A stretch of 50,520 nucleotides of DNA from an uncultured Clostridiaceae bacterium (GCA_958402495.1 CATXTS010000002.1:1-50520); one strand, 5' to 3'; numbered from the stretch's first letter, positions 13,844 to 14,172 are shown. The notes: generated from the letters alone by a model not told the origin. A program made the numbers and translations.

Positions 13844-13872
13844 TTGAAATTCAACTCTATTCAATGTATAAT
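13844..13872 (+). promoter_or_regulatory. Sigma-A promoter of the (now split) host tRNA-Arg gene
   Basis: TTGAAA (13844-13849), 17 nt, TATAAT (13867-13872). The tRNA 5' end lies 17 nt downstream. Confidence 0.6.
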
Positions 13873-13889
13873 AAATAACATAGTAAAAT

Positions 13890-13928
13890 GCAGCTGTAGC
13901 TTAGTTGGATAGAGTGTTCGGCTACGAA
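13890..13928 (+). pseudogene. 5' half of host tRNA-Arg(ACG): acceptor 5' strand through the anticodon loop, severed by the island
   Basis: GCAGCTG TA GCTT AGTTGGATA GAGT G TTCGG CTACGAA, followed by unrelated sequence (ACGCACACCC). The matching 3' half lies at 25560-25611. Confidence 0.85.
13915..13928 (+). repeat. attL core, a 14-bp direct repeat TGTTCGGCTACGAA
   Basis: The identical 14-mer recurs at 25560-25573. It covers the anticodon stem 5' strand plus the loop of tRNA-Arg. Confidence 0.8.
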
Positions 13929-13946
13929 ACGCACACCCATAGTTTT

Positions 13947-13961
13947 ATAAATATTGATATT
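13947..13961 (+). repeat. 15-mer ATAAATATTGATATT, copy 1 (candidate recombinase arm-type site)
   Basis: Exact copies occur at 25344-25358 (direct) and 25491-25505 (inverted). All three lie just inside the island ends. Confidence 0.7.
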
Positions 13962-14045
13962 TAGGGTTTTCAAGAGATAGTATGAAAAGTTTTCCCCTGA
14001 AAATCCCCTTAAATATAAATTTCATACCAAAAGCCATATTATTAT

Positions 14046-14122
14046 GTGCCTGTAGTTTAGCTGGATAGAATGGCAGGCTACGAACTTGCAGATCGGGGGT
14101 TCGAATCCCTCCAGGCACACCA
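14046..14122 (+). tRNA. Island-borne complete tRNA-Arg (anticodon ACG)
   Basis: GTGCCTG TA GTTT AGCTGGATA GAAT G GCAGG CTACGAA CTTGC AGATC GGGGG TTCGAAT CCCTC CAGGCAC A CCA. The stems differ from the split host copy by compensatory changes, while the T-arm is identical. Confidence 0.9.
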
Positions 14123-14130
14123 TTTGGTAA

Positions 14131-14172
14131 AACATAGTTCTCAAGCTAGTTTGAGAACTATGTTCTTTTTTT
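14131..14172 (+). terminator. Intrinsic terminator after the island tRNA-Arg, overlapping the integrase 3' end
   Basis: Perfect 14-bp stem: AACATAGTTCTCAA (14131-14144) pairs with TTGAGAACTATGTT (14151-14164). CTTTTTTT follows. Confidence 0.75.

Follow-up and report, generated by a model that had tools for sequence, protein, structure and literature searches.

How can an integrative element cut a host tRNA gene in two, leave no intact tRNA at either of its ends, and still be tolerated by its host? This question is raised by a locus on a contig of an uncultured Clostridiaceae bacterium (GCA_958402495.1 CATXTS010000002.1:1-50520), the whole stretch of which, 50,520 nucleotides (nt) long, was analysed and is called the window in this study. 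At this locus the host gene for tRNA-Arg(ACG) is interrupted in its anticodon loop by an 11.6-kb island, and a complete tRNA-Arg(ACG) is encoded on the island itself. It is proposed that the island's integrase recombines in the anticodon loop, that the island brings a full replacement gene which would be transcribed by read-through from the host promoter, and that excision restores the host gene; a probability of roughly 0.85 is given to this reading. What carries it at the level of sequence is the split itself, the attachment (att) sites, the empty site seen in other genomes, a conserved and functional-looking island tRNA, and an architecture found throughout the family of related elements. 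The locus had been described in an earlier prediction made from the DNA alone (the original prediction), and the positions that it gave for the halves, the core, the spacer, the island tRNA, the promoter and the terminator were all confirmed.

The orphan 5' half of the host tRNA-Arg(ACG), which forms attL, occupies 39 nt at 13890-13928 on the plus strand (GCAGCTGTAGCTTAGTTGGATAGAGTGTTCGGCTACGAA). It spans the 5' strand of the acceptor stem, GCAGCTG, to the end of the anticodon loop, CTACGAA, and from 13929 it is followed by unrelated DNA. On the same strand, attR (25560-25611) consists of a core (25560-25573) and the orphan 3' half (25574-25611, CCGGAAGGTCGGGGGTTCGAATCCCTCCAGCTGCACCA), which contains the 3' strand of the anticodon stem, the T arm, the 3' strand of the acceptor stem (CAGCTGC) and ACCA. 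The two acceptor strands of the host gene, GCAGCTG and CAGCTGC, are complementary to one another and do not pair with the island tRNA. The core TGTTCGGCTACGAA at 13915-13928 recurs exactly, over 14 bp, at 25560-25573.

As the original prediction had stated, neither junction forms an intact tRNA. ARAGORN called three tRNAs in the window, namely tRNA-Pro(TGG) at 13690-13765 (minus strand), tRNA-Arg(ACG) at 14046-14122 (plus strand) and tRNA-Arg(TCT) at 35011-35087 (minus strand), and made no call at attL or attR. A permissive Rfam/Infernal search (E<=10) found no tRNA at 13890-13928, and a search with Infernal for a hidden tRNA-like fold at both junctions gave only a sub-threshold partial match at 25557-25611 to transfer-messenger RNA (tmRNA), a family that belongs to the tRNA clan. 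At attL the 5' half continues into ACGCACACCCATAG..., which offers no T arm and no acceptor 3' strand, and therefore no tRNA is regenerated there. The tRNA was likewise not rebuilt at the other junctions inspected in the Arg clade, the relatives that target the same gene.

Genomes in which the gene is whole show what was interrupted. The core together with the 3' half (52 nt) was used as a query against one representative genome per species of 185,579 bacterial and archaeal species, and exact matches were found in ten metagenome-assembled genomes (MAGs), one apiece, whose record titles name uncultured Clostridia, Clostridium sp. or Bacilli. In nine of the ten, the match lies within an intact 77-nt tRNA-Arg(ACG), and nucleotides 1-39 of this gene are identical to 13890-13928, so that the halves of the window, when joined, equal 77 of 77 nt of the intact gene in nine MAG species. 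Therefore, the split arrangement is not a matter of chance, and the two halves represent one host gene interrupted by 11.6 kb. An assembly artefact was considered as an explanation and rejected. The tenth match (L009) is an occupied attR, at which the island end is homologous to window 25480-25559.

The surroundings of the intact gene resemble those of the window on one side. The host tRNA-Pro(TGG) (Rfam 69.5 bits) is the divergent neighbour of the target and lies in the left flank, outside the island; the same arrangement, with tRNA-Pro(TGG) divergent and about 125-150 nt from the intact tRNA-Arg, is found in L011, L012, L013, L014 and L016. At L013 the intergenic DNA is near-identical to window 13766-13889, and one flanking gene is 83% identical. 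Among the fetched loci there was no empty site that preserves both flanks; L013 preserves the left flank only, and the aminotransferase gene of the right flank is absent from all of them. The joined gene, which the original prediction had proposed to look for in related strains, was thus recovered, though not with both flanks. A hairpin at 25643-25675, 3' of the host 3' half and called on the minus strand by the terminator scan, is probably the original host terminator, common to the tRNA gene and the convergent aminotransferase gene.

The position of the crossover can be narrowed further by comparison with a close relative. In L027, attL and attR are identical only over the 7-nt loop CTACGAA, and therefore the crossover falls inside the anticodon loop. 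The 14-bp direct repeat that had been said to mark both junctions of the window is indeed present at both; as a measure of the obligatory core, however, it is an overstatement, since 7 nt suffice in L027. It appears that the obligatory core is CTACGAA, that the longer repeat of the window is partly fortuitous, and that the crossover in the window likely lay within 13922-13928. A common core of this kind would be too short to restore a functional tRNA at attL or attR.

The arrangement is not confined to one host. An integrase 93% identical to that of the window (P0002) is found on Logan contigs from another host (L001), where the terminator, the island tRNA and the spacer recur next to another host 5' half, GCAACAGTAGCTTAGCTGGATAGAGCACTCGGCTACGAA, which likewise lies beside tRNA-Pro, and the same layout is seen at integrase homologues of 69%, 56% and 55% identity. 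A metagenome scan with an integrase profile yielded 80 loci, mostly from the human gut, and these were surveyed by script together with the loci obtained earlier; the informative set of the Arg clade comprises about 60 metagenome loci in which the contig is long enough downstream of int. A convergent tRNA-Arg(ACG) stands directly after int in every relative at 42-100% identity with enough downstream sequence, and, two informative cases excepted, an interval of 109-209 nt separates the island tRNA from an orphan host 5' half, upstream of it, that ends in CTACGAA. The corresponding 3' halves at attR were obtained from L027, L062 and L009, the attR of most relatives lying beyond the 10-kb flank. 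Across the family, distinct host halves number at least 15 and distinct island tRNAs 16, and a single element was seen in as many as eight host backgrounds. Spacer, tRNA and int travel as one set into at least 15 host tRNA backgrounds, which bears out the earlier view of a mobile unit that crosses over in the anticodon loop, splits the host gene and carries a complete cognate tRNA.

The island gene itself, at 14046-14122 on the plus strand, is, as had been predicted, a complete tRNA-Arg(ACG), the only one that ARAGORN finds in the window, and scores 61.7 bits with Rfam (14046-14119). It lies 117 nt past the host 5' half and in the same orientation, the spacer occupying 13929-14045. When compared by hand with the host tRNA, it shows compensatory differences at acceptor-stem pairs 2-71, 3-70 and 4-69, at D-stem pair 11-24, and at anticodon-stem pairs 27-43 and 29-41. 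The 16 distinct island tRNAs fold into a cloverleaf with RNAalifold, with compensatory double changes at 15 of the 21 pairs, and the sole unpaired cell in the alignment is an alignment gap. From this pattern of substitution the island tRNAs appear to be maintained, functional-looking genes. In the host open reading frames (ORFs) of the window, CGT, CGC and CGA together make up 23% of the arginine codons, and therefore an Arg(ACG) isoacceptor is needed.

How would the island tRNA be transcribed? The host tRNA-Arg promoter, TTGAAA-17-TATAAT at 13844-13872 (plus strand), agrees with TTGACA/TATAAT at 11 of 12 positions in a consensus scan, and downstream of it there now lie the 5' half, the spacer and the island tRNA. 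An intrinsic terminator with a 15-bp stem and a T-run was found by the terminator scan after the island tRNA, at 14131-14172 on the plus strand; its hairpin, 14131-14164, is the only terminator-like site in 13600-14400, and none lies between the host promoter and the island tRNA. The 70 nt preceding each island tRNA were surveyed with a simple -35/-10 scan. TTGAAA-17-TATAAT precedes the island tRNA in most Arg elements, including L027 (integrase 90% identical), and in this interval no convincing sigma-70-like promoter was found in the window, in L001 and L100, or in the elements of two sister clades, discussed below, that target tRNA-Lys and tRNA-Arg(CCT). The orphan host halves scored at least 9.5 of 12 for a promoter in 34 of the 44 scanned, with a few poor ones, and near-consensus host promoters are also present ahead of promoter-less island tRNAs. 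It is plausible that the host promoter of the window drives the island tRNA, and for the subgroup to which the window belongs, capture of the host promoter would be the best available explanation. At the right end of the island, an outward-facing TATAAT (25512-25517) is conserved in the alignment of attR ends with L027 and L009; one may speculate that it drives the island tRNA across attP in the circular form.

The proposed course of events is as follows. The tyrosine integrase would act on a minimal core in attP and on the anticodon loop of the host gene for tRNA-Arg(ACG), and recombine the two. After integration, the island tRNA, placed between the P' arm and the int end, would sit 117 nt past the orphaned host promoter, with its terminator following. 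Since no promoter belonging to the island tRNA itself can be recognised in the window subgroup, read-through from the host promoter is most likely, and the resulting precursor, in which the 5' half and the spacer precede the tRNA, would be trimmed by RNase P and by 3' processing. The island tRNA would then assume the decoding of CGU, CGC and CGA. Finally, excision by Int and Xis would rejoin the halves, and the host gene would be restored. The original prediction had suggested an addiction-like effect, in which the supply of the isoacceptor would depend on keeping the island if no other ACG copy exists. This suggestion is weak and finds no support in the form given: conservative Int/Xis excision would rebuild the intact gene seen at the empty sites, and therefore loss of the island by excision would be harmless.

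The 5' half has retained a promoter and the conserved outward TATAAT at 25512-25517 faces the 3' half, and it might be supposed that the halves are expressed apart and assemble in trans to a functional tRNA, in the manner known from the split tRNAs of Nanoarchaeum, so that the gene would not truly be inactivated. This is scarcely credible. The predicted transcripts have no complementary leader and trailer, and the only inverted repeat, of 13 nt (13950/25491), is an arm-like DNA motif that lies upstream of the putative attR-side -10. A splicing endonuclease pathway would be required, and no such pathway is known from bacteria. The consistent presence of a full replacement gene also argues that the halves are dead.

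The proposed replacement by the island gene depends on a site-specific recombination system, and the parts of one can be recognised. The tyrosine integrase is encoded at 14141-15577 (minus strand) by an ORF of 478 amino acids (aa), with Pfam matches to Phage_integrase (4.8e-25) and to a SAM-like N-terminal domain; its start is likely M6, as in the homologues. Residues R267, K315, R392, H393, H415 and Y424/Y425 are invariant in 16 homologues and are read as the catalytic set, which appears to be intact. An excisionase-like HTH_17 protein (15667-15882, minus strand; Pfam HTH_17, with a weak PHROG match to 'excisionase and transcriptional regulator') accompanies int in 79 loci and is a candidate recombination directionality factor. 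One pair of att cores encloses one int/xis set.

The spacer (13929-14045, plus strand), which is about 90% conserved in L001 and L027 from other hosts, is proposed to be the P' arm of attP; it carries AATATTGATATT at 13950-13961 and TTTTCCCCTGAA at 13990-14001. The right end of the island (25297-25559, plus strand), examined by motif searches and by alignment with the attR ends of L027 and L009, is proposed to be the P arm, and carries AATATTGATATT at 25347-25358 and 25491-25502 (minus strand) and TTTTCCCCCGAA at 25363-25374. There are exactly three copies each of AATATTGATATT and TTTTCCCCYGAA in the 50-kb window, and none of the six is more than about 320 bp from an att core; they occur on both sides. 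These arm-like motifs are conserved in relatives and look like the arm-type sites of a lambda-like attP, to which we infer that the integrase binds. Close relatives of the integrase were found neither among GenBank phages or PLSDB plasmids (at most 28% identity) nor in IMG/VR. Queries for exact copies of the window's integrase, of its aminotransferase-GNAT gene and of a radical-SAM gene likewise gave no recorded sequence.

One subclade of the integrases (66-74% identity) has an extra C after codon ~270, reading ccagaagaaCggttgtgg as against ccagaagaaggttgtgg in the window. It is present at L048-L056, L058 and L073 (e.g. L053:4040-4070; proteins P0073-P0104) and adjoins Arg267. It breaks the gene into an N-terminal ORF of 274 aa and a C-terminal portion that continues in the +1 frame; apart from this, neither portion is damaged in diverged members of the subclade, and the truncation occurs in about 30 protein clusters. 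The extra C could reflect a programmed +1 frameshift or an old, inherited inactivation.

Several observations weigh against the proposal that the island replaces the gene which it splits. The promoters were called by similarity to a consensus, in DNA that is very rich in A+T, and the spacer may contain a promoter of non-canonical type. The count of one match per MAG holds for the exact host sequence only; MAGs are incomplete and divergent copies would escape, so that the host may have further tRNA-Arg(ACG) genes and the island tRNA may be dispensable. In addition, two loci with integrases of 93-94% identity carry a hybrid tRNA, composed of a host 5' half and an island 3' half, that stands directly on the host promoter with no spacer (L026:8586-8662 and L059:737-813). 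Such a hybrid would follow from a crossover in the loop of the island tRNA, or from a deletion between the two direct CTACGAA cores, and the family can thus also reach a canonical-looking state.

The gene number bears on a different explanation, namely that the island tRNA is ordinary cargo beside other host copies of tRNA-Arg(ACG), where it supplements codon usage or counters tRNA-targeting defences, and that the splitting of one copy costs little. Further copies of tRNA-Arg(ACG) may exist in the genome of the window, tRNA genes are redundant in many Firmicutes, and anti-defence roles of phage tRNAs have been raised in discussion by Hatfull and co-workers (PMC10865867). However, the anticodon of the carried tRNA is always that of the split gene, and this holds for three specificities (Arg-ACG, Lys-CTT and Arg-CCT); moreover, the tRNA always lies between the att core and int and is oriented with the host promoter. 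Such strict coupling of anticodon and position is to be expected of compensation and not of generic cargo. The single exact match to the host sequence in each of the ten MAGs also speaks against the cargo explanation, which is considered unlikely. Compensation for the split gene is preferred, and on that reading we infer that the island tRNA may be essential.

The hybrid tRNAs of L026 and L059 also lend something to the idea that the locus is a relic of tandem or nested integration or of rearrangement, in which the 5' half and the spacer are older debris and the tRNA is the canonical hybrid of a second element. Tandem accretion does occur in the family (L045 and L060), and in L017 and L022 a second int-bearing element lies beside the first. 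For the window, however, this idea is largely refuted and highly improbable: the acceptor strands of the island tRNA match each other, as do those of the orphan halves, the spacer and the tRNA travel with int into many unrelated host backgrounds, and a single pair of att cores bounds a single int/xis set.

How such an arrangement may have evolved is suggested by the sister clades. Relatives at 30-38% identity split tRNA-Lys(CTT) and carry a complete cognate tRNA, and L104 does likewise with tRNA-Arg(CCT); the split site is again the anticodon loop. In several of the Lys elements (L077, L084, L089 and L092), a degraded tRNA 3' half lies beside the core, about 350-400 nt after int, and a weak hybrid at attL is called by ARAGORN and Rfam, with 46-52 bits versus 66-71 bits for the island tRNAs. 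The remnant of the 3' half is gone in L074, L094 and L081. The Lys pattern looks as if a canonical attP had decayed once the element had acquired a complete tRNA gene, which is among the scenarios discussed by Guerrero-Bustamante and Hatfull (PMC10865867).

A more general scheme, for which the odds are judged to fall slightly short of even, is that the int family forms a natural series leading from an attP that restores the tRNA to elements that split and replace it. The stages may be represented by the Lys(CTT) elements, with a decaying 3' half and a complete tRNA, by most Arg(ACG) elements, with a minimal core and a tRNA under its own promoter, and by the window subgroup, in which this promoter would have been lost. 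If this is true, the tRNA of the window subgroup would be expressed only after integration behind a host promoter, or in the circle from the outward-facing promoter across attP. The family could also drive the turnover of tRNA-Arg alleles and the formation of tandem defence islands in gut Firmicutes, since island tRNAs come from host alleles, recombine with them (L026) and serve as attB (L045 and L060). At L045:4856-5390, an element is inserted in the island tRNA of another element, and at about position 8039 of L060 an island tRNA is split by a further insertion.

By its gene content, 13929-25573 is an 11.6-kb integrative island with anti-phage defence cargo and not a phage. No capsid, tail, terminase or lysis gene was found among the 14 ORFs examined, and the matches to PHROGs consist of int, xis, one N-terminus resembling that of a replication protein, and one family of unknown function. 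No Pfam or NCBIfam match to relaxase or type IV secretion system families was found in the island, two ORFs of which are unassigned. While int, xis and three small ORFs are common to close relatives, the variable cargo (16247-23628; Pfam, NCBIfam and PADLOC) is mostly missing from them. This cargo includes a TadA/guanine-deaminase-like deaminase, a serine hydrolase, an FMN reductase and a defence block at 18720-23628, which is made up of an AbiEi/AbiEii pair (18720-20179), PDC-M48A (20247-20729) with a PDC-M48B-like MBL-fold protein (21183-22049), and an AbiL-like ATPase, annotated as an AbiLi-like AAA ATPase (22309-23628). Two backbone ORFs of 222 aa and 116 aa lie beside attR (23882-25248, minus strand) and are 71-83% identical by tblastn to L027 and L025; the 116-aa ORF is weakly like the N-terminus of a phage replication-initiation O-like protein (PHROG 9773, 1.3e-08). 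Between the ATPase gene and the 222-aa ORF, at 23681-23733, there is an inverted repeat of 25 nt, near-perfect and closed by a 3-nt loop (AATAGTTATTACGATTTTTCTAATA / TATTAGAAAAATCGTAATAACTGTT), which may serve as operator, as terminator or as an origin-like element.

TadA edits A34 of tRNA-Arg(ACG), its only substrate in bacteria, and the TadA-like deaminase gene (16247-17092, plus strand; 281 aa) lies about 2 kb from the island tRNA-Arg(ACG). The N-terminal domain of its product best matches TadA and also matches guanine deaminases, all below the family cut-offs. A place for the deaminase in the tRNA module was considered and rejected, as only L026 among the fetched relatives has the gene and TadA and guanine deaminase share the best matches between them. 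The deaminase is probably cargo without relation to the tRNA, although the coincidence is a notable one.

Outside the island, just left of tRNA-Pro, window 11601-13525 contains two radical-SAM ORFs that overlap, of 300 and 284 aa, and after them an ORF of 71 aa; together they may form a peptide-maturation cluster. In L013 a radical-SAM gene of 52% identity is found on the opposite side of tRNA-Arg, which indicates local rearrangement between species. In L017 (12110-21325) and L022 (12180-20015), the second mobile element directly past tRNA-Pro is a separate unit and encodes RepA_N, Mob_Pre, HTH_17 and an integrase of 458-464 aa. The Pro/Arg tRNA pair may be a hotspot with elements on either side.

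The island has consequences for annotation and possibly for genetics. Finders of the Islander type, which rely on a restored tRNA gene together with a displaced 3' fragment, may mis-map or miss such elements, and in tRNA annotation of such genomes the tRNA-Arg(ACG) listed for the organism will be the allele that the island carries. The cassette of core, P' arm, tRNA and int is a possible integration vector for Clostridia that are hard to engineer, comparable to the proposal made by Hatfull for mycobacteria.

As a general rule, islands regenerate the tRNA gene which they target (Islander, PMC4383910), and the original prediction had implied that the failure to restore the gene at attL was new. 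Exceptions have in fact been published (PMC10865867, PMC3714127, PMC6028734). Like canonical tRNA islands (Williams 2002 classes; Islander, PMC4383910), the present element has a tyrosine integrase by the end that adjoins the tRNA and a displaced 3' fragment at the far end, and as in canonical anticodon-loop islands the crossover lies in the 7-nt loop between symmetric strands of the anticodon stem. Unlike in canonical islands, its attP lacks a tRNA 3' part that would regenerate the gene at attL, a degraded version of which is kept in the Lys(CTT) clade.

The closest parallel is tRNA-dependent lysogeny, described by Guerrero-Bustamante and Hatfull (mBio 2024, PMC10865867), in which the cores are 8-17 bp, the tRNA is not rebuilt, and the cognate phage tRNA was experimentally required for viable integration in mycobacteriophages. 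It occurs in several phage clusters and with several tRNA isotypes, related phages rebuild the tRNA, and its presence outside actinobacteriophages was predicted (PMC10865867). The island has much in common with actinobacteriophages such as Fionnbharth, LeBron and Gaia (PMC10865867), namely a tyrosine integrase, arm-type sites (arm-like motifs in the island) and an attB in a host tRNA gene. As in tRNA-dependent lysogeny, the core is short (8-17 bp there, 7-14 bp here), no functional tRNA is found at attL or attR, and the element's tRNA has the anticodon of the target, with apparent compensation in the island; in both, related integrases have switched the target and the carried tRNA together, and relatives that rebuild the tRNA exist. 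Unlike those phages, the island is a non-phage element without structural or lysis genes and with no relative in IMG/VR, it carries defence cargo, its hosts are uncultured gut Clostridia with low G+C content, and its target is Arg(ACG). The island tRNA is linked, lying between the att core with its P' arm and int, whereas that of Fionnbharth is elsewhere in the genome; and whereas a strong tRNA promoter has been demonstrated in Fionnbharth, the tRNA of the window subgroup has no promoter of its own and stands behind a host promoter.

Two further systems are comparable. Prophage tRNAs that complement disrupted targets were noted earlier by Fortier and Sekulovic, with Lj965 of Lactobacillus johnsonii as an example (PMC3714127). 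Like the island, Lj965 resides in Firmicutes, and in the accounts given of it (PMC10865867, PMC3714127) its tRNA target is reportedly not rebuilt and its tRNAs could complement the loss; unlike the island, it is described there as a prophage with four tRNA genes. In Pasteurellaceae, integrative and conjugative elements (ICEs) have a disrupted tRNA-Leu at both ends and an intact internal copy (Beker et al. 2018, PMC6028734). ICEs of the ICEPmu1/ICEMh1 type are thus also non-phage elements that flank themselves with a disrupted tRNA and keep an intact copy inside. Unlike the island, they are large conjugative elements of Proteobacteria whose tRNA lies after parA and far from int; the island is 11.6 kb long, has no detected relaxase or conjugation genes, and belongs to a different integrase family.

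Therefore, overall, the concept of splitting a tRNA gene and replacing it was already published, and the novelty lies in a large, so far uncharacterised family of gut Clostridia islands that are not phages and carry defence genes, with its linked cassette of core, P' arm, tRNA and int, its three target specificities and its promoter-less variants. The habit of splitting a tRNA and bringing one's own is thereby extended from actinobacteriophages and a few proteobacterial ICEs to widespread small defence islands in the Clostridia of the human gut.

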